Origin: an uncultured Candidatus Bathyarchaeia archaeon
Lineage (GTDB): Archaea > Thermoproteota > Bathyarchaeia > Bathyarchaeales > Bathyarchaeaceae
Length of the DNA stretch: 34,406 nucleotides
NCBI GenBank assembly: GCA_964455275.1
Contig: CAYVVO010000012.1
Coordinates: forward strand, 1-34,406
Reading direction: 5' to 3'
Notes under the pieces: model-generated
Databases searched by the model: none
What the model saw: the letters and a program-made list of their open reading frames with translations, nothing else
Told to the model about the DNA's origin: nothing
In this document: in pieces, positions 1,957 through 19,256 of the stretch
Layout of the letters: each line of letters opens with the position of its first letter
Numbering within the stretch: position 1 is the stretch's first letter
Made by a program: the position numbers and the translations under genes

Positions 1957-2433
1957 ATGTTAAGCCCTAAGGACGATCTGGAAAAGAAAATAATTCTCCA
2001 ACTACTTGAGGATGGGAGGCGACCCACTCTTCACATCGCCAGAAACATCGGGGTTACAAGACAAACTGTTGCAAAGAAGCTTGAGCAGTTACGTAATTCT
2101 GGGCTTATAACCTCATTTGCTCCCAGATTAAACCATGAAAAGTTAGGTTTAGCCATCCAAGCCTACGTTTTCATGCGGGAGGACCCAAGCAGCAAACTCC
2201 GAGGTAAGAATGAGCAGACAATCAAGGGTTTCCAGCAGGTAGCCGAGTTCCATCGAATCTTCGGAAAATATGATAGCCTCATAAAGGTGCTGGTGGAGAA
2301 CAACGAGGAGTTGAAAGAATTCGTTGAGAAGCTTCACAGTTTAGAGGGTATTAGAGAAACAGAAACCTTCATAGTCCACAGCACAATAAAAGACAAACCT
2401 GAAGACCCCACCAAGAAAGCACTAACAGAGTAA
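1957..2433 (+). CDS. Lrp/AsnC family transcriptional regulator (HTH plus RAM domain)
   Basis: N-terminal LEKKIILQLLEDGRRPTLHIARNIGVTRQTVAKKLEQLRNSGLI is a typical AsnC-type HTH. The C-terminal alpha-beta ligand domain includes AYVFM...VAEFHRIFGKYDSLIKV. Confidence 0.9.
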   Translation: MLSPKDDLEKKIILQLLEDGRRPTLHIARNIGVTRQTVAKKLEQLRNSGLITSFAPRLNHEKLGLAIQAYVFMREDPSSKLRGKNEQTIKGFQQVAEFHRIFGKYDSLIKVLVENNEELKEFVEKLHSLEGIRETETFIVHSTIKDKPEDPTKKALTE

Positions 2434-2491: not shown

Positions 2492-3418
2492 TCACCAAAT
2501 TATGCCCATTTTTACTACGATATCACCAAAATATGGCTGACCGACTGCAACATCAACAATTTTATCGTTTTGCGGTTCTATGTAAATCAGTCCGATGTCA
2601 GTGGTGTTGAAACAGGCTATTGCATGGGCGCTATCATCAAATTCGATGTAAACGAAACCGCATCTGTAACCCATCTGAAACGCGTTGGTGTTGAAGTCGG
2701 CTGTGAAATCGTAGCAAACATAATCTGGAGTATACTCGTTTTCGTTTGTTCTATCTGAATTTATGAAGGCAATCGCCTCGGCATATGTTGGGTCCCTAAT
2801 GTACCAGCCGCTTCCAGCCCCATCCTCCACACCTTGAGCATACCCCGCATCATAGCCGGCTTGGTAGCTTTCAATCACCTCATTTTCTAATGACGTGATC
2901 TCAGTTTGGAGGCTTGTAATGTTGGCTTGTAACGTTGAAACTTGGTTTTCAAGAGCGGTTTTTTCGTTATTTAGTGAAGTAACTTCAGATTGGAGACTTG
3001 CTACTTGAGCTTCCAGAGCAACCTTATCGTTGTTCAATGAAGCTATTTCTGATTGGAGATCTGAGATGTTAGATTGCAAATTTGAAACTTGTGTTTCTAG
3101 TGTGCTCTTTTCGTTTTCTAGTGCAGTCACCTCAGTTTGGAGGCTTGTAATGTTGGCTTGTAACGTTGAAACTTGGTTTTCAAGAGCGACTTTCTCATTG
3201 GTCAATGAAGCGATTTCCGATTGGAGACCTGAAATGTTAAATTGTAAATTTGCTACCTGCGCTTCTAAACTAAACCTTTCATCTTCAAGTCCAGAAATCT
3301 GATCTGCTTTCATCTGCAGTTCATGGTCTTTCTGGTTAACCGCCATTACAGCTCCAGCAACTGCAACACATAGAACAACGCAAATCAAACTGAGCGCTAC
3401 GATTTTCTTATCAATCAT
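2492..3418 (-). CDS. membrane-anchored coiled-coil stalk protein with C-terminal transglutaminase-like (Cys/His) domain
   Basis: The ORF track gives 2492..3697, but its first 93 codons run across the tRNA at 3550..3626. The ATG at 3418 starts MIDKKIVALSLICVVLCVAVAGAVMAV (TM anchor). About 190 aa of LQSEI(A/T)SL.NEK..LE.QV repeats follow. The globular end contains YVCYDF...SAHAIACF...IEPQND. Confidence 0.75.
   Translation of the reverse strand: MIDKKIVALSLICVVLCVAVAGAVMAVNQKDHELQMKADQISGLEDERFSLEAQVANLQFNISGLQSEIASLTNEKVALENQVSTLQANITSLQTEVTALENEKSTLETQVSNLQSNISDLQSEIASLNNDKVALEAQVASLQSEVTSLNNEKTALENQVSTLQANITSLQTEITSLENEVIESYQAGYDAGYAQGVEDGAGSGWYIRDPTYAEAIAFINSDRTNENEYTPDYVCYDFTADFNTNAFQMGYRCGFVYIEFDDSAHAIACFNTTDIGLIYIEPQNDKIVDVAVGQPYFGDIVVKMGIIW
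2900..3188. repeat. exact 58-bp direct repeat (2900..2957 and 3131..3188, offset 231 bp = 77 codons) inside the coiled-coil CDS
   Basis: Both copies read ctcagtttggaggcttgtaatgttggcttgtaacgttgaaacttggttttcaagagcg. Flanking units are degenerate copies (gattggagac... recurs). Confidence 0.95.
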
Positions 3419-3549
3419 TACGCATTTCCTCCAAACCACTGAAATACATGATTCCTTACGAAACAATATATACGCTTCGCAACCTGAAAACCTTTCTATC
3501 CTCAAACAGCACCAAAATCTAACATAAAAACAGGGGTCCACCGCAAGAA

Positions 3550-3626
3550 TGGAGCCTCGGGCGGGATTTGATCCCGCGACCAACAGCTTACGAGGCTGCC
3601 GCTCTACCGGGCTGAGCCACCGAGGC
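3550..3626 (-). tRNA. tRNA-Thr (anticodon CGU), CCA encoded
   Basis: Identical to the tRNA at 49..125 at 76 of 77 positions. The only difference is anticodon position 34 (loop CUCGUAA). A T-run (TGTTTTTATG) follows downstream. Confidence 0.9.
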
Positions 3627-3822
3627 GTTTCCAGTGAATTGATTCCATAACACATTTTTAAGACGTTCGGGGGGCAAACAAGCCCCTGCAGAGGCATCCA
3701 TGAAATCCTCTGTTATGTTCCTGAAATAAATAATGATTGTGGAGCATTCGATGTTTGTGTATGTGGCTGCAGCGTCTACACGCCTATGAAGTCAAGAAGT
3801 TGGCGTTCCCTCTGTATGGGAC

Positions 3823-5487
3823 TCATTTTTTGTCTGCCTTCATGAAGAAGAAAAGAATCACTCCAATTATGGCGGCTGCGGCTATCACTGCTACAATCAG
3901 TACTATTATGGAGAAGTCTGGTTGCGGAGGCTCTGCCCCCTCGGCTATGGTGAAGTAAACTGTTTCAGACGTTCCAGTTTTTCCATCTGTATCCTCTGCG
4001 TAAAGTGTTATTCTGTGCTCGCCATAAGCTAGGTCGGATAACTTTATGTCTTCAGTGATTGTGACGTTTGCTTGGTCGTCTAGGCTGTATTTTATCCATG
4101 AGGTTGTTTTGCTCACGGTGAATTTTAAGGAAACAGAGTTTACTGTGTATGTCTTGTTTTCTGGTGAATCAATGAAGATGGCGGGGGGGCTTCCATAAGG
4201 CATAAGCGGAAAATTGTCTTGGTTGTTCTGGTTAATAATGTAAGGCGTATCTCCTAATTCGTCGCTGCCTGTCTGGTTTCGGCTCGCTCCGCTCCTCGCA
4301 TCGACACCCGTATAGTCGCTCCAATAATTACCGCCTACAGGATAGCCAACATCCCAGGTGTTTATTGAGACCGCTACAGAATAGTTTTCCCCACTAACAT
4401 CGTAAACCTGTATCTTGTTATCGATAAAATAGTTGCCTCTAATCATGTTATATGAGGACTCCATAAAGCCGATTCCAACGTTGTTGTCTGTTATGTTGTT
4501 TAGCATAATGGTGTTTTGGAGAGAGTTGAAGAGGAAGATGCCATCTGCGCCGTTAGTTATAACATTTGTAGATATGCTGTTAAGGTTTGAAGCGTTACTG
4601 AACTGTATTCCTCTCTCGTTGTCTGTTATGTTGTTTGTACTAATGTAGTTGTCGGAAGACGCAAAGAGTCCTATTCCAGAGTAATTGTCCGTTATCTGAT
4701 TTTCATATAATGTCGACCCTGTTGTGTAAGCCAATAGTATGCCATGCCCATTGCCGGTGAGTTCCAGATGATGGACTGTTATGTTTTTGCAGTTCACGAG
4801 GGCGAGATAACCTACATCTGGAAAAGTGACCGAATTTATGACCAGATTACTTTCGCTAATCAGATAGTAGACTTTTTTGCCGTTGACTGTGTTTGAATTA
4901 TCAATTTCATTATCGAAGTGTGAAGGCTCGTCGCCATAAACCGCGAGATTATAATTATTGTCCATTTTGTTGTCTCTAAGTATATTTTTTGAAGACAAGA
5001 AGATGTTGATACCTATGCCGTTGTTTGTTATGTTGTTTCCAGTAATGGTGTTTTGTGAGGCTTCGTTAAGGTAGAGACCATAATTGTTGTGTGCTAAGGT
5101 GTTTCCAGATATGATGTTTTGTGAAGCGCCCTCAAGGTAGATACCGTAAAAGCTGAATCCTATTTGTAAGTTCTTGATTGTCACGTTGTTTCTGTACGAC
5201 AGGTCTATTCCTCTTTCTCCTTGTCCTGAAAGATAGTAGCCTGCGCCATCAACTACAATGTTATTACGTTGAACTACAAGATAGAAACTGTCAATGTTAT
5301 CTGTGAAGGTGTAGATGTCTCCAGCCTGTTGAATAGGAGCTGTAGTATTTGTTGAAGTGACAATGCTTCCATCACTTAAAATGTAAATGAATCCCTCAAT
5401 ATCTTGTGAGTTAACGGGCTGAGTGTTAACTGCACATAACGAAATTATGGTTAAGACAACTAGAAAAATAACCTTACTTGTGTTCAC
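3823..5487 (-). CDS. secreted right-handed parallel beta-helix (NosD/PbH1-like) repeat protein with C-terminal TM anchor
   Basis: GTG start is preceded by GGGAGAGG. Signal peptide MNTSKVIFLVVLTIISLCAVNT. Many N-x-I-x-x-N beta-helix rungs (NNITNNGIGI, NNITDNERGI, NNITDNNVGI). GNYWSDY...DNFPLMPY module. Tail PQPDFSIIVLIVAVIAAAAIIGVILFFFMKADKK. Confidence 0.85.
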   Translation of the reverse strand: MNTSKVIFLVVLTIISLCAVNTQPVNSQDIEGFIYILSDGSIVTSTNTTAPIQQAGDIYTFTDNIDSFYLVVQRNNIVVDGAGYYLSGQGERGIDLSYRNNVTIKNLQIGFSFYGIYLEGASQNIISGNTLAHNNYGLYLNEASQNTITGNNITNNGIGINIFLSSKNILRDNKMDNNYNLAVYGDEPSHFDNEIDNSNTVNGKKVYYLISESNLVINSVTFPDVGYLALVNCKNITVHHLELTGNGHGILLAYTTGSTLYENQITDNYSGIGLFASSDNYISTNNITDNERGIQFSNASNLNSISTNVITNGADGIFLFNSLQNTIMLNNITDNNVGIGFMESSYNMIRGNYFIDNKIQVYDVSGENYSVAVSINTWDVGYPVGGNYWSDYTGVDARSGASRNQTGSDELGDTPYIINQNNQDNFPLMPYGSPPAIFIDSPENKTYTVNSVSLKFTVSKTTSWIKYSLDDQANVTITEDIKLSDLAYGEHRITLYAEDTDGKTGTSETVYFTIAEGAEPPQPDFSIIVLIVAVIAAAAIIGVILFFFMKADKK

Positions 5488-8658: not shown

Positions 8659-11151
8659 TTATTTTTGTTTTTTGAGTGTCATGTAGGCTATTAGACCTAT
8701 GACCACGCCGACGGCTGCGATTATCAGTATGACTAGGTCGATTGTCAGATATGCTGGTATTTCTGGAATTGATGGGTATGCTGGCATCTGGTTTACGGTT
8801 GTCTGCGCAATCTCTGCTGCGCTGGGAACATCTACTTCTGCTGGCGCTTCGTCTACACCAAATGTGGTTGTTGCCTGTGAGATGCAGTAAGATTTGGAGC
8901 CTTCGAACATTGCAGTGACATGGTATTCGCCGACAACGCTGGGAGCCCACATGTGGCTGAACACGCCATTTTCATCGGTTGTAACGGTGGCTGAGTACCA
9001 TTCTCCATTCGGATCTTGTATTTTTATAAACACTTCGACACCTTCAACTTCATATGTAGTGGGCCACTGCATGTACACGTAATGCATCCAGTCGGTCATG
9101 TTTTCGTCGGCTACTGCTGGAACACCGTTTGGAAATCTTAGTTGCAATGCGATGTCTTTTGTGCCCGGAGATACATCCATTACTGTGCCCTTTATCATTA
9201 CACTGCTTCCGAGTGAAATAACGTCGTTTTGGATTGAAACTGTGGTTGAGCTTGGACCTTTACCTATGGCGTATAAGCGATTATCGTATCCGTTTAATCC
9301 TACTATTGTGCTGTCTCCGATCATTACGTGTCCGCCCCACCAGTTGTTTATCCAGCTAAGCTCCCAGATTTTTGTTCCATTTTCAACATCAAGAACGACT
9401 AATGGACCGCCTCTAGGTATAGGATTAATTGGTGAATGCTCTGAATAGGATAAACAGATTTTTCCATCAGCGAGGAAATGGTATGCGATGTGGAATTTGT
9501 TGCTCCATGTCATTTCAGAGTATTGGTCTAGTACATCATAGGTCCACAAGACTTTTCCAGTTTCAAGGTCGTAGCAAGTTACTATTCCGCTAGCGCGACC
9601 GGTGAAGAATTTTCCATAGCCGTAAGCGGGACCATACCATTTGTCATAGAAGGCTAGGTAGCCTTCTGGTTCAGTTGTCCATTTTAAGTCACCAGTGGTC
9701 AGAGAGAAAGCATGGTATGTTAGAGTCTCTTTTGATGATACTATCATGACATCATTTTCTGGGATAGTGTCTGAGTAAACCAAGGTTGTACCGCTTTCTG
9801 GCAATGTTACAGTTTTCTTGAAAACCATAGTTCCTTCATTTCCCGGAGATACGTCAATTGCCCAATTAGTGACATCTGGAGATGTGCCGCCAAAAATTCC
9901 GCCAGAAGAACTACCAACTATTTTGTCAAATAGATGATATGAACAAGCTGATCCAGGCAGGTCTGTGGGTATATCTATGGTCCATTCGATTCCTGTTGTG
10001 GCGTCGTAAGTGTTTCCTTGTGGTCTCCAGCTGCCCTCATCTGAAACTACTCTACTGGAGTTCCATAATGACAGCGTTCCTGACCTAGTGTTTAAGGTAT
10101 ATCGATAGATTTCGCCTTTAGGTCCATACAGATTATAGCCACCAGGCACGTTTTCCATTGTGTATTCCCATCGTCCTGTCAGTGGGTCATATGCCTTCCA
10201 TGTTCCAGAACCAGCAGCTCCAAAACCTCCGGCACCGCTATCTGTCCATAGGTAGCCGAAAACACCGTGGTAGTTGTATGAGTCCCAAAAGAATGTTTGC
10301 CCAAATTGTAGTCTTTCATTATTCCAGTTTTTGACCCACAGTTCTTCACCAGTTTTTAGATCTACGGCAACAACGTCCTGATCAAGTTCAGGGTTGCTTC
10401 CTTGCCATTCGTATCTGTTGTAGTATAGTACTCCGCTTATTATTACGGAGCCCCTAAATTTTTCTTCGTACGCGTCTCCCATTTCGTATTGAACATTTCC
10501 AAGTTCGACGCTAACTAGTCCTCCTTGTGTGTATGGTTTTGTCCAAAGAACATGTCCGGTTTCGGGTGCATCAGCGTTGCCTGCATGATATTTCGGAATA
10601 GGTGGCATTATATAGGTTCCTGCTGGTCTTAGCCAATCTCCAGAAATTTCTGACCATTCATAGAATTGTGCGTTTATTGGTCGCGTCCAGTATTCTGTTG
10701 GAAGAGAAACACCCGGCCAATAAGGTAGTGATTCTTCTTGCACTACAACTACTAGTTCATCAGTTTCGCTAGCTAACATATTGCCTTGTTCAGGGAAGTG
10801 ACCTTTTACGATGTATTCTCCAACCAGAGTGGGAGTGTAAGGAACTCCAGTTCCTCCAGTGGCATCTGTTGTTATGTCAGAAAGTGTTTCAGTTTGACCG
10901 TCTGGTCTTTGTATGGTTATGCTTAAGCCTTCCCAGCCCATATGCGTGCTGGAGAGTTGTGCTGAAATTCCAACATGGAATAACAGTTGTTCGTTTACTG
11001 GTGCAGGATTAGGTATGGCACCGATATATGGGTAGGTTTTTTTTCCTTGCTGAGCGTTAATAGTCGGAAAAATTGTAAGAATCGACGAAAGCGTTAGAAC
11101 TGTTAGCAAAATAATCATTGAAACTTTGTATCTTTTTCTTAATATTTTCAT
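8659..11151 (-). CDS. secreted PQQ-like beta-propeller repeat protein with Ig-like domains and C-terminal TM anchor
   Basis: Signal peptide MKILRKRYKVSMIILLTVLTLSSILTIFPTINA. Repeated propeller motifs VVAVDLKTGEELW, HAFSLTTGDLKW, TCYDLETGKVLW, LVVLDVENGTKIW, RLYAIGKG. Tail IPEIPAYLTIDLVILIIAAVGVVIGLIAYMTLKKQK. GGAG lies 9 nt before the ATG. Confidence 0.85.
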   Translation of the reverse strand: MKILRKRYKVSMIILLTVLTLSSILTIFPTINAQQGKKTYPYIGAIPNPAPVNEQLLFHVGISAQLSSTHMGWEGLSITIQRPDGQTETLSDITTDATGGTGVPYTPTLVGEYIVKGHFPEQGNMLASETDELVVVVQEESLPYWPGVSLPTEYWTRPINAQFYEWSEISGDWLRPAGTYIMPPIPKYHAGNADAPETGHVLWTKPYTQGGLVSVELGNVQYEMGDAYEEKFRGSVIISGVLYYNRYEWQGSNPELDQDVVAVDLKTGEELWVKNWNNERLQFGQTFFWDSYNYHGVFGYLWTDSGAGGFGAAGSGTWKAYDPLTGRWEYTMENVPGGYNLYGPKGEIYRYTLNTRSGTLSLWNSSRVVSDEGSWRPQGNTYDATTGIEWTIDIPTDLPGSACSYHLFDKIVGSSSGGIFGGTSPDVTNWAIDVSPGNEGTMVFKKTVTLPESGTTLVYSDTIPENDVMIVSSKETLTYHAFSLTTGDLKWTTEPEGYLAFYDKWYGPAYGYGKFFTGRASGIVTCYDLETGKVLWTYDVLDQYSEMTWSNKFHIAYHFLADGKICLSYSEHSPINPIPRGGPLVVLDVENGTKIWELSWINNWWGGHVMIGDSTIVGLNGYDNRLYAIGKGPSSTTVSIQNDVISLGSSVMIKGTVMDVSPGTKDIALQLRFPNGVPAVADENMTDWMHYVYMQWPTTYEVEGVEVFIKIQDPNGEWYSATVTTDENGVFSHMWAPSVVGEYHVTAMFEGSKSYCISQATTTFGVDEAPAEVDVPSAAEIAQTTVNQMPAYPSIPEIPAYLTIDLVILIIAAVGVVIGLIAYMTLKKQK

Positions 11152-11421
11152 TCGTTTTTCTCCTTTTTTATTTTTTGTTGAGTTTGGTTGCCTTTGACAA
11201 CTGATCTGTCAGCGTGCGCATGCATATGCTAGCTGCCAGAGGCTCCCTCAAACCCATCGCACAGAGCTATACCCCATTTTGTTTTTAAAGTTATTCTAAC
11301 CTTTAACAGAAATTTTCATTTGGGTTTGGGATTGAAATTTTAACTTGGAAAAAGGGGAGTTTGCGTGAGAATAGTGGATGTGTCTCCACCGTTTAGTGAA
11401 CAGCCAGTCCCTTAACGTTTT

Positions 11422-11757
11422 TCATGCTTTTACTTTCCTGAACAGTTTCTTGCTTTTAATCTCGCAAACTGGGTCATGAAGCGGTTTTTTTGTGTTGGAA
11501 AACAAGGATTGCTGCCCCCCCAAAACGCCGACTGCCAAGATAACCCAAAGCCAAAGCTCTTGAGAGAAAGCACTTGAACTTTCGTTTGGTGACAGGCGCA
11601 TGCTGATTTGATGGGTGCTATGCAAATAGCTGAATGCAACAAGCCAAGAATCATCCACAGGTGCTATTGAATAGTTGAGTTGATTTTCGTTCCATATCGC
11701 CTTTAATGAAGTCGCCAGAAGCACAGTAACGATAAGATTCTTCAATTTTATGTACAT
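11422..11757 (-). CDS. small hypothetical protein with signal-peptide-like N-terminus and C-terminal TM (uncertain)
   Basis: ATG start, MYIKLKNLIVTVLLATSLKA, later LWLWVILAVGVLGG plus a basic tail. It sits directly downstream of the triple palindrome array. I recognise no homology. Confidence 0.35.
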   Translation of the reverse strand: MYIKLKNLIVTVLLATSLKAIWNENQLNYSIAPVDDSWLVAFSYLHSTHQISMRLSPNESSSAFSQELWLWVILAVGVLGGQQSLFSNTKKPLHDPVCEIKSKKLFRKVKA

Positions 11758-11805
11758 TCCTATTTCTATTAATAATACGCTTTTTCATCGATTAAACGGG
11801 TTTTT

Positions 11806-11868
11806 GTAAAGTTTTCTTGACAAGACTTGGTCAAGGTTTCTTGACTAGATTGGTCAAGTTTTCTTGAC
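11806..11868. promoter_or_regulatory. array of three 16-bp palindromes GTCAAG-N4-CTTGAC, 23-24 bp phasing
   Basis: Units are 11806-11821 GTAAAGTTTTCTTGAC, 11830-11845 GTCAAGGTTTCTTGAC and 11853-11868 GTCAAGTTTTCTTGAC. The proximal unit is 49 nt from the ATG at 11757. Confidence 0.6.
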
Positions 11869-12043
11869 AAAAACGCTTTTCTTCCCCTTCGAGTAGAAAC
11901 ATGGACTGATGGCTCCAACACAGGAAATGAAACTCACCAAAAGTAAGTTGCTTTACAAGTTTCATTTTTCATTCCCCAAATGCCTGTGTAGGAGCCTCAG
12001 CAAACTCCATCATTTTAAGCTCATGAACAGCTTTTGGAAGCAG

Positions 12044-12412
12044 CTATCTTTTTTCTACAATGATTTTTGTTCCGCTCTTGACTTGTTCGAACAGTTCCAG
12101 ATTCTTGGTCACTTTGCCGATTATGTTGACGGGACTGTATGGCTGGGTTTCACCGTAGAATATGCAGAAGGCGCTTCCCATTGGCCAGTAGGCTAAGGTT
12201 CCCTTCTCCACTGTTGGTTTAGCCTTTTCGTTACCCATCTTCACAGGAATACCGAAGTAAACTTCTTGTTGCCACAGGGCTGCTAGACCCTCCAATGGAA
12301 GCTGCCTGATTATGGCATCTGTAGTCCGTGGAGATCGAATGCGAACAAGTTCTCCTTCCGCTTCTCCAACGTTCTCAATAATGAATCTGATGGATAGACG
12401 AGAAACACTCAT
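12044..12412 (-). CDS. cyclophilin-like fold family protein (DUF369-type)
   Basis: The pattern ...TTDAIIRQLPLEG.ALWQQEVYFGIPV...EKGTLAYWPMGSAFCIFYG matches the small cyclophilin-like family as I remember it. Confidence 0.6.
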   Translation of the reverse strand: MSVSRLSIRFIIENVGEAEGELVRIRSPRTTDAIIRQLPLEGLAALWQQEVYFGIPVKMGNEKAKPTVEKGTLAYWPMGSAFCIFYGETQPYSPVNIIGKVTKNLELFEQVKSGTKIIVEKR

Positions 12413-17723: not shown

Positions 17724-19175
17724 CTATGGAGTTGAACGGAATAGCCTCTTTTTTACGATTATTGCAGATAAAGTAGCCATCAAGAATAAGGGCAAGATAA
17801 TCCATGAAGGAAACTCTGGAATTGCATCCGTTCCAATTATTTCTACTGTTTTGATGCGGTGCTGGTAAGTAAAGTATAGGTAGGTGTTGTTTGCTTCTTC
17901 GTTGACTGCTGGAGCTACCGAGGTGCCATCGACCAAAACAGTCCAGTTGCCTTCTGAATGTAACAGGTCTTTTGGTATTGTTACTCTGCAGAATCCTGTT
18001 GTTCCGGTTTCGCCCTCCACATTAAACCGCACTAGAGCAGTTTCAGGGTTGAAACTGAAATCTGAAACAGTTGAGTTACTCATAACATTAACACCATAAC
18101 TAGTCCCTTCCCATGTACCAGCATCAAAGAATGTGATTGGAGCCATGAGTGGGTAATTGTCCCTGTTGTTCTCATTTATGATGTAAGAAGTATCTCCTAT
18201 TCCATCTCCGTCACTGTCGGTTCCGTTGTAATCGCTCCAATAGTTGCCTTCTAGACCGTTATCCCAGAAATTACGGGATAAGCCAGCACCGGCGTTGTGA
18301 GCATTGTTAATAAAATTGTTATGATAGAAAGTGTTGTTGACTGCGCTAGAACTCAAACTCACTCCCATTCCCTCATCAATTTCGGGAATATTATAATTCA
18401 TTATGTAGTTATCATGAAAAACATTGTTAGTGCCATGATAACCAATAGCGATGACAAAAGGACCGCCGTAGTTTTCTCCGTTCATTATGTTTCCTGAAAA
18501 CGTATTATGAGAACTCGTATCCCCAGAACTGGTCATTGAGAAGCCAAGACACGTATTGTTATGTATCACATTTGAATTTGAAAACCGTAAATAGATATAC
18601 TCGTTAAGGACGGTGTTTCCGACAATAGTATTGAATGAAGAGTTCCTTAAACTAAATCTGTAATTTACTTTATTTTTGTTGATGTTGTTATTCGAACCAA
18701 TCAGCGTTATGCCTTTTGTTATGGTACAATTGATTATTTGAGTTCCGTTTCCCATCACGAGAATTATCCCACCGGGTTTAGGCGCAAGTGTGAGATTCGT
18801 TAGTTTGATATTGTTGGCATTGATTTCGATGGCATTTGCATAACTATAGAATGCTTGCATAGTTATCCATGTGACATTGTATGCTGGATGTAGGTTAATT
18901 ATTGTGTTTTCGGGGTTTTCGCCTATAATTGAGATTGTTTTGTTGATAAGTATGGTTTGATTTATAGGGCCTTCATAGATTCCGTTTCTAACGAAAATAG
19001 TATCGCCATCCTCAATAACTCGAATAGCTTCTTGAATAGAAGAATAATCGTCTGGAACAATAAGGGTCTTAGCTTCTGCTTTTGCAGTAAAGTTTTGTGA
19101 AATAGATGCCAGAATAAAGGAAAGAACCAGCAATAACACAATTATTGCTTTGGTTTTCTTTATATTAGAAAGCAT
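17724..19175 (-). CDS. secreted parallel beta-helix (NosD-like) repeat protein with PEF-type C-terminal anchor
   Basis: Signal peptide MLSNIKKTKAIIVLLLVLSFILASISQNFTAKA. SIQEAIRVIEDGDTIFVRNGIY. Beta-helix rungs. GNYWSDYNGTDSDGDGIGDTSYIINENNRDNYPLM. Tail IPEFPSWIILPLFLMATLSAIIVKKRLFRSTP. Paralogous to 3823..5487. Confidence 0.85.
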   Translation of the reverse strand: MLSNIKKTKAIIVLLLVLSFILASISQNFTAKAEAKTLIVPDDYSSIQEAIRVIEDGDTIFVRNGIYEGPINQTILINKTISIIGENPENTIINLHPAYNVTWITMQAFYSYANAIEINANNIKLTNLTLAPKPGGIILVMGNGTQIINCTITKGITLIGSNNNINKNKVNYRFSLRNSSFNTIVGNTVLNEYIYLRFSNSNVIHNNTCLGFSMTSSGDTSSHNTFSGNIMNGENYGGPFVIAIGYHGTNNVFHDNYIMNYNIPEIDEGMGVSLSSSAVNNTFYHNNFINNAHNAGAGLSRNFWDNGLEGNYWSDYNGTDSDGDGIGDTSYIINENNRDNYPLMAPITFFDAGTWEGTSYGVNVMSNSTVSDFSFNPETALVRFNVEGETGTTGFCRVTIPKDLLHSEGNWTVLVDGTSVAPAVNEEANNTYLYFTYQHRIKTVEIIGTDAIPEFPSWIILPLFLMATLSAIIVKKRLFRSTP

Positions 19176-19216
19176 AACAACCTGTTTTATGGTGAATATA
19201 AGGTAAAAGTTTTTTT

Positions 19217-19256
19217 GTCAAATTTTCTTGACTAAATTTTGTCAAGATTTTTTGAC
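19217..19256. promoter_or_regulatory. array of two 16-bp palindromes of the same GTCAAG-N4-CTTGAC family, 24 bp phasing
   Basis: Units are 19217-19232 GTCAAATTTTCTTGAC and 19241-19256 GTCAAGATTTTTTGAC. The proximal unit is 42 nt from the ATG at 19175. A TATA-like TTATAT lies between them. Confidence 0.6.

Follow-up and report, generated by a model that had tools for sequence, protein, structure and literature searches.

Tandem GTCAAG-N4-CTTGAC palindromes at positions 11806 to 11868 of the window, the whole 34,406-nt stretch of Bathyarchaeia DNA analyzed here, belong to a recurrent promoter module in which two direct repeats of a 22-bp unit precede a BRE/TATA core promoter, mostly in front of genes for cell-surface and secreted proteins. 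This module is very probably bound by a protein, because its tandem dyad units, rigid register with BRE/TATA, strict orientation, and conservation before unrelated genes all point that way. Going by sequence comparison, we further think it probable that a promoter-proximal cis-regulatory module, widespread in and specific to Bathyarchaeia, has these palindromes as its recognition units. Our favored reading, held with similar confidence, is that such a tandem transcription factor site abutting BRE/TATA acts as the upstream activating sequence of a surface-protein regulon. An array of transcription factor sites upstream of BRE/TATA is a well-known kind of element. We found no published account of the motif, or of any Bathyarchaeia promoter element, in the full-text literature searched, and text searches for GTCAAG or TTGACTAA plus archaea returned nothing relevant. 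This agrees with the first-pass annotation of this DNA, which had not recognized GTCAAG-N4-CTTGAC as a described archaeal operator.

The first-pass annotation had reported three units in this region (array 1), two of them perfect, with starts 24 and 23 bp apart. All of this holds: two units are exact, the third has one mismatch (GTAAAGTTTTCTTGAC), and the spacing is as given (Table 1). The proximal unit does lie 49 nt from the ATG at 11757, with the 830-aa PQQ gene next on the same strand. The exact unit was also rightly called rare, as the window contains 2 exact copies against 0.0019 expected from base composition; with up to one mismatch allowed, there are 5 units against 0.07 expected. Allowing two mismatches gives 6 units against 1.65 expected, a weak test because single loose units are chance occurrences (19 of 33 isolated loose units lie inside ORFs). 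Two further claims did not survive. The units had been placed on the same face of the helix, but 23 to 24 bp correspond to 2.2 to 2.3 helical turns, which leaves them ~100 degrees out of register. The triple layout had been taken as the element itself, but the canonical form is a pair. Tandem Repeats Finder reports a 23-bp repeat with 2.6 copies at array 1, and the 23-bp insertion holding the middle unit is missing from all four orthologous promoters (L181, L099, L184, and L187), so the third unit and the odd 23-bp spacing result from a local, window-specific tandem duplication. The TATA-like CGTTTAATC of array 1 starts 8 to 9 bp past the proximal unit, in the class-wide register RARAAns-CTTTTA, and aligns with AAAAACCCTTTAATCA of L187.

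Table 1. Coordinates of the arrays and associated features in the window
Feature	Position	Strand	Description
Distal unit, array 1	11853..11868	-	Exact GTCAAG-N4-CTTGAC; minus-strand reading GTCAAGAAAACTTGAC
Middle unit, array 1	11830..11845	-	Exact, GTCAAGAAACCTTGAC; inside 23-bp tandem duplication
Proximal unit, array 1	11806..11821	-	1 mismatch, GTCAAGAAAACTTTAC
Core promoter, array 1	11790..11805	-	Purine-rich BRE-like AAAAACC, then TATA-like CGTTTAATC
111-aa ORF	11422..11757	-	Decayed remnant of ~514-aa surface-protein gene; no counterpart in L099, L181, L184
PQQ-gene promoter and leader	11152..11292	-	Separate promoter; TATA AACTTTAAAAAC at 11281-11292, conserved leader of ~125 nt
PQQ-propeller surface protein	8659..11151	-	830 aa; at most a read-through target of array 1
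Distal unit, array 2	19241..19256	-	1 mismatch, GTCAAAAAATCTTGAC
Proximal unit, array 2	19217..19232	-	1 mismatch, GTCAAGAAAATTTGAC
Core promoter, array 2	19202..19216	-	BRE-like AAAAAAA, then TATA-like CTTTTACC, canonical +8 register
Array 2 target gene	17724..19175	-	483 aa; N-terminal signal-like segment, NosD/beta-helix domain

Among the archaeal markers encoded in the window is a thermosome, and homologues of the 830-aa PQQ protein carry the source labels Bathyarchaeota or Bathyarchaeia. A scan of GTDB, with a single genome for each species, for neighboring pairs of GTCAAR-N4-YTTGAC units separated by a gap of 7 to 8 gave 97 loci, against ~0.07 expected (an estimate from the degeneracy of the pattern and the 596 Gb covered). 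Thirty-eight of these loci come from ~28 Bathyarchaeia assemblies, five of them from strain BE326-BA-RLH, and the remainder are bacterial. Such recurrence, together with conservation in orthologous promoters, is a trait of upstream activating sequences. Two loci labeled as bacterial, L010 (CAZMCS010000030.1, labeled Muribaculaceae, GC 0.33) and L057 (DATIXS010000122.1, labeled Acidoferrum, GC 0.40), have arrays of the Bathyarchaeia type with A/T-rich centers and a TAAG spacer; these may be mis-binned archaeal contigs in bacterial bins. A scan of viral contigs gave only 2 matches, both of the bacterial type, and we therefore rejected a viral or mobile origin of the array.

Oriented by the A-rich center, the archaeal arrays have the consensus tTTAGTCAAGAAAsyTTGAC-TaAnn-TTAGTCAAGAAAnCTTGAC-RARAAns-CTTTTA-y. 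The search pattern imposed neither the TTA flanks nor the A-rich center nor the RARAAns-CTTTTA tail. The recognition core is the 6-N4-6 palindrome. Conserved TTA/TAA flanks around an AAA center extend the consensus to 9-N4-9 (TTAGTCAAG...CTTGACTAA), a form that suits a dimeric HTH protein, and thus widen each unit to a 22-bp palindrome, TTAGTCAAG-AAAsy-TTGACTAA, which the canonical module holds as two direct repeats 24 bp apart. All five units in the window have the A-rich center (GTCAAGAAAAYTTGAC) on the minus strand, the strand of the genes that follow, so the "palindrome" is directional and the units are direct repeats. The same holds throughout the arrays, where the A-rich center always sits on the strand of the downstream gene. 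Within arrays, all units share one orientation in 43, 5 are mixed, and 7 include a unit with a neutral center. Neighboring units are 24 bp apart in 47 of 60 pairs, although the pattern allowed 23 bp equally, and within the canonical pair the GTCA/TGAC cores alternate at an exact 12-bp period.

The register with the core promoter is similarly rigid. The purine-rich BRE (RARAA) lies 1 to 2 bp from the end of the proximal unit, and at 8 bp from the same end comes the half-strength TATA box (CTTTTA). Counted from the end of this unit, the purine-rich tail has A at +2, +4, and +5 in 41 to 47 of 53 arrays, and the positions of CTTTTA at +8 to +13 are conserved in 37 to 47 of the 53. In 43 of 54 nonredundant arrays the first TATA-like word starts at +8 or +9 when the A-rich side is read, compared with 6 of 54 for the opposite side. 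The sites thus stand upstream of BRE/TATA and overlap neither the TATA box nor the start site; if the TATA box is centered near -27, the unit centers would fall near -47 and -71. Downstream of the arrays, conservation of the TATA box stops after its first half, CTTTTA, whereas promoters in the window that lack an array have fuller boxes: TTTTATAT (gene starting at 5487), TTTATATT (thermosome), and TATAAATA (16660).

Of 55 arrays with at least two units, 53 fall outside ORFs, in DNA that is 66% coding. They are also enriched before genes whose products begin with a signal-peptide-like segment, called here by a crude Kyte-Doolittle criterion for a hydrophobic N terminus: 28 of 45 downstream ORFs have such an N terminus, compared with 72 of 300 (24%) in the background (Fisher p = 6e-7, and 3e-11 without the loci fetched through the regulator discussed below). 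The downstream ORF usually starts 30 to 60 nt past the array, and leaderless or short-leader mRNAs are therefore predicted. The secreted products include NosD/right-handed beta-helix surface proteins with C-terminal membrane anchors (in eight genomes, including the window gene 17724-19175), PQQ propellers, a periplasmic-binding protein (Peripla_BP_2), and several unannotated families. Non-secreted products are a multi-wHTH regulator, a putative glycosyltransferase, and a hemA-like enzyme, the last two judged from sequence with no Pfam hit. The NosD/beta-helix, PQQ propeller, Peripla_BP_2, regulator, and putative glycosyltransferase families are mutually unrelated. Many of the target genes form one large surface-protein superfamily, so part of the spread of the array may reflect duplication of promoter plus gene. 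Secreted-protein genes at 5487 and ~22150 of the window have no array upstream.

Array 2, at 19217-19256, is the canonical and clean case in the window: two units 24 bp apart, aimed at a minus-strand gene, with a TATA-like word at +8 and the ATG (19175) of the 483-aa NosD-like gene 41 nt downstream. The ATG lies so close to the array that we predict little or no leader on the mRNA of this gene. In 7 other genomes, genes for homologues of its product have the same array.

Array 1 turned out to be more complicated. The gene order of cyclophilin-like gene, array, and PQQ gene is kept in three other contigs: L181 (PQQ protein 93% identical to that of the window), L099 (88%), and L184 (86%). In all three, a two-unit array occupies the same place and is nearly identical base for base, which bears out the expectation that the motif would be conserved in orthologous promoters. 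The DNA directly downstream of the array is unalignable across these contigs, and the window has ~330 bp extra there, containing the 111-aa ORF. The first-pass annotation took this for a small signal-peptide ORF; it is instead an internally deleted and frameshifted remnant of a gene for a 514-aa surface protein (P0122). Its residues 15-80 match the C termini of many large surface proteins in a search of 1.8 billion representative proteins, residues 6-90 align with C-terminal residues 415-502 of P0122 at 62% identity, and residues 1-15 weakly match the P0122 signal peptide (9/15 identical, E = 0.022). A frameshift in a G-run destroys the membrane anchor after the matched region. On this alignment, with its internal deletion and frameshift, we rejected the ORF as a genuine small secreted protein. 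An intact homologue, L187:441-1985, follows a canonical two-unit array and then AAAAACCC-TTTAATCA, with the ATG at the homologous position. The presence of a remnant in the window and the loss in L099, L181, and L184 indicate that turnover of surface-protein genes is ongoing behind a conserved promoter.

The PQQ gene, in contrast, has a promoter of its own. Its TATA box, AACTTTAAAAAC, and leader are also present in L098, where there is no array upstream, and the ~125-nt leader is nearly invariant in five loci (the window, L098, L099, L181, and L184). A long stem is predicted in this leader; no covariation was seen among the five sequences, which are too similar to show any. The leader may have a regulatory role. 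No array is present at more distant PQQ orthologues located in other contexts (L098, L100, L182, and L183). Of the proposed surface-protein transcription unit, then, one part stands, in that the array precedes a surface-protein gene, but a single unit of small ORF plus PQQ gene is doubtful because a conserved TATA box and leader belong to the PQQ gene itself. A role for the PQQ gene as a direct target of array 1 is doubtful for the same reason and in view of its array-less distant orthologues. Taken together, the remnant ORF, the array at the L187 homologue, and the separate PQQ promoter point to array 1 as the promoter of a since-decayed surface-protein gene; the array gained its third unit by the 23-bp duplication.

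It is also worth recording two observations from these loci. A non-coding block of ~150 bp (~11880-12040; GGGTTTGCTGAGGCTCCTGCACAGGCGTTTTGGGGAATGAAAAATGAAACTT...) lies between array 1 and the cyclophilin-like gene (12044-12412). It includes an inverted repeat (ATGAAACTT...AGTTTCAT) and is conserved throughout the four syntenic loci; it may represent a small RNA, or else the 3' UTR or terminator of that gene. At L098:7774-7834, two good units stand 45 bp apart and face the 3' end of a TrmB-family gene. This pair has no TATA box at +8 and is atypical, outside the canonical module.

How might the module work? A winged-helix-type regulator, bound as two dimers or as one tetramer, would occupy the units centered near -47 and -71 and contact TFB/TBP on the adjacent BRE/TATA, helping to recruit both. 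Binding would thereby switch on a regulon made up mainly of cell-surface and secreted proteins, expressed from leaderless or short-leader mRNAs. Side-by-side dimers and a tetramer on the four cores at 12-bp period are equally possible. We infer activation because the sites lie wholly upstream of BRE/TATA and the TATA box is weak; CTTTTA, set against the fuller boxes of array-free promoters, fits dependence on an activator. Archaeal regulators that bind upstream of BRE/TATA activate, as documented for TrmBL1, Tar/TK0271, Ptr2, and TFB-RF1 (PMC4706686, PMC6737238). A point against this picture as a whole is that the 24-bp repeat does not amount to a whole number of helical turns. The earlier proposal of a multi-site operator for a dimeric factor upstream of BRE/TATA thus keeps its layout (register, orientation, intergenic position, and conservation) and loses the shared helical face.

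The closeness of the array to the core promoter also admits the opposite sign. Because the proximal unit abuts the RARAA BRE-like stretch at a distance of just 1 to 2 bp, a dimer bound there could cover the BRE and bar TFB/TBP, and the genes would be expressed once the factor leaves. Footprints typically reach beyond the palindrome, tandem palindromes are typical of repressors, and in bacteria the same palindrome pair stands beside Xre and MarR genes. We nevertheless consider repression unlikely: there is no overlap with the TATA box or start site, characterized archaeal factors activate from such wholly upstream positions, and a repressed promoter has no need of a weak TATA box. Alternatively, the element might be read by or with a specialized basal factor (a TFB or TBP paralogue) or a DNA-bending protein and mark a constitutive, high-expression class of envelope promoters. 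This would accommodate the rigid BRE/TATA register, the strict orientation, the A-tract-like centers, the conservation across the class, and the lack of a cognate regulator gene near the arrays, but it is improbable on two counts. No TFB or TBP paralogue was seen beside the arrays, and tandem dyad-symmetric 6+6 units point to dimeric HTH regulators, of which they are a hallmark, whereas TFB and TBP read the asymmetric BRE/TATA.

Least probable of all is that the array has no function of its own, being either a repeat that spread with duplicated surface-protein genes and their promoters or an RNA or DNA hairpin (terminator or cruciform); the evidence largely refutes it. Membership of many downstream genes in one superfamily and the recent 23-bp duplication in the window are what spread by duplication would produce, but the array precedes unrelated gene families at a fixed distance from the TATA box, and it is nearly invariant while the adjacent promoter and leader DNA is unalignable (L181, L099, L184, and L187). 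A single strand of the array folds well (z-scores of -4.6 to -5.9), as any palindromic sequence trivially would. No covariation links the variable positions 6 and 11 (GTCAAA...CTTGAC and GTCAAG...TTTGAC), the array lies upstream of the TATA box and the predicted start site with no adjacent T-run, and Rfam run over the whole window returned two tRNAs only and nothing at the array. On these grounds of position, covariation, T-run, and Rfam match, we rejected a structured RNA, terminator, or hairpin.

Returning to an activator bound upstream, the neighborhoods of the arrays offer few candidates for the factor. Clustering of the ORFs within 2.5 to 3.5 kb of 46 archaeal arrays revealed no recurrent regulator family, with the exception of a multi-wHTH gene downstream of the array in 3 loci (L025, L048, and L092). 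An autoregulatory operator beside its own regulator gene, in the MarR or Xre style, is not what we observe, as an adjacent regulator is not recurrent. The multi-wHTH regulator, a Zn-ribbon protein of 328 aa, combines an N-terminal CxxC...CxxxC motif with two to three winged-helix regions, and by sequence its family has no relative in the PDB. Its family has 975 homologues, few of them with a named source; these are mostly Bathyarchaeota/Bathyarchaeia, with one Chloroflexi. We fetched 80 homologous loci, of which 68 had usable upstream DNA. A GTCAAG array upstream of the TATA box was found in 11 of the 68 promoters. The other 57 (L108-L179, e.g., L113:2800-3000) have two ATGAC-N4-GTCAT sites 19 bp apart immediately downstream of a strong TATA box (TTATTTAAAT), an arrangement that resembles textbook autorepression. 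Clearly, this family is under autoregulation or tight control.

In a neighbor-joining tree, the 11 array-bearing proteins separate cleanly from the other 57, yet the groups differ at two alignable positions only (K153M and V188A), apart from a C-terminal tail restricted to the array-bearing group. With almost no differences in the DNA-binding domains of proteins that stand behind different promoter elements, and with the array at 11 of 68 promoters, the link between this family and the array stays weak, and that its members read the GTCAAG array is a tentative suggestion at best. A bolder version would have one class-specific master activator reading the four alternating GTCA cores at their strict 12-bp period, the array being the mark of a Bathyarchaeia-wide cell-surface program that activates the bulk of the envelope and secreted proteome and, in one clade, the activator's own gene; the highly conserved Zn-ribbon protein of the multi-wHTH family, with three winged-helix domains, could be this activator. 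We think this unlikely as it stands. If it were true, it would define the first regulon for this abundant uncultured class and reveal an unusual multi-domain way of reading a promoter. Lrp/AsnC genes occur in the window (1957-2433) and also beside array-less PQQ orthologues.

Several described archaeal systems resemble the array in part. The upstream activating sequence of Ptr2 (Lrp family, Methanocaldococcus jannaschii), which uses two tandem sites, and the sites of TFB-RF1 (Pyrococcus furiosus) are likewise palindromic and directly upstream of BRE/TATA. Ptr2 activates by recruiting TBP, and TFB-RF1 does so by recruiting TFB (PMC4706686, PMC6737238). The array differs from both in its unrelated sequence, its Bathyarchaeia lineage, its 16/22-bp directional A-rich unit with a strict 24-bp repeat, and its targets, which are surface proteins and not redox genes. 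The Tar (TK0271) box of Thermococcus kodakarensis, TGGACA-N8-TGTCCA, differs from the array in sequence, in its N8 spacer, and in occurring as a single site; the regulon under Tar is one of amino-acid biosynthesis. The Thermococcales glycolytic motif (TGM) of TrmBL1/Tgr is, like the array, a palindromic archaeal operator, and its effect depends on its place relative to BRE/TATA, with upstream positions giving activation; it is usually present in single copy and both up- and downstream of promoters, whereas the Bathyarchaeia array is found upstream only and always paired. GTCAAG-N4-CTTGAC matches neither the Tar box nor the TGM consensus, TATCAC-N5-GTGATA. Lrp/AsnC boxes are imperfect palindromes of 13 to 15 bp with an A/T-rich center, often in regular arrays; the A-rich center and regular spacing of the array are broadly of this kind, but its unit is 16 to 22 bp. 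The GvpE upstream activating sequence of haloarchaeal gas-vesicle promoters is a bipartite 20-nt element with two conserved portions, directly upstream of BRE (PMC2241852). Unlike the array, the GvpE element is non-palindromic and is found in a single gene cluster, where a leucine-zipper-type activator binds it. The array adds one case to the short list of archaeal activator-position elements directly upstream of BRE.

The bacterial loci of the scan share with the archaeal array an identical 6-N4-6 palindrome and a 23- to 24-bp repeat. They differ from it in their G+C-rich, non-directional centers, in having no TATA register, and in lying beside the regulator gene itself. Among the bacterial loci of L002-L097 (e.g., L019, L063, L097, and L023), those of Actinobacteria have pairs beside ~72-aa Xre genes with a membrane-protein neighbor, and those of Myxococcota and Acidobacteria have pairs beside ~165-aa MarR genes; the operators of the MarR group also have the same TAGTCAAG...CTTGACTA flanks as the archaeal array. 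These pairs appear to be conserved bacterial operators. That two unrelated bacterial regulator families use the same palindrome suggests that the likeness is probably convergent and gives no indication of the archaeal factor. We therefore rejected the bacterial look-alikes, as independent Xre and MarR systems, as a guide to that factor.

In sediments, peat, and the deep subsurface, Bathyarchaeia rank with the most abundant archaea. We know of no genetic system for them, and we found no publication on their transcription regulation in the literature searched. The module permits co-regulated surface and secreted proteins, the interface with detrital substrates, to be predicted from sequence only, and as a defined element it makes the search for the cognate regulator experimentally direct. 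It also helps in fixing gene starts and in recognizing decayed genes such as ORF 11422-11757, and it can expose mis-binned contigs.

The two tRNA genes of the window lie at 52-125 and 3553-3626, both on the minus strand. The latter falls inside the listed ORF 2492-3697, which encodes a coiled-coil protein, and the true start of that gene must therefore be downstream of the tRNA.
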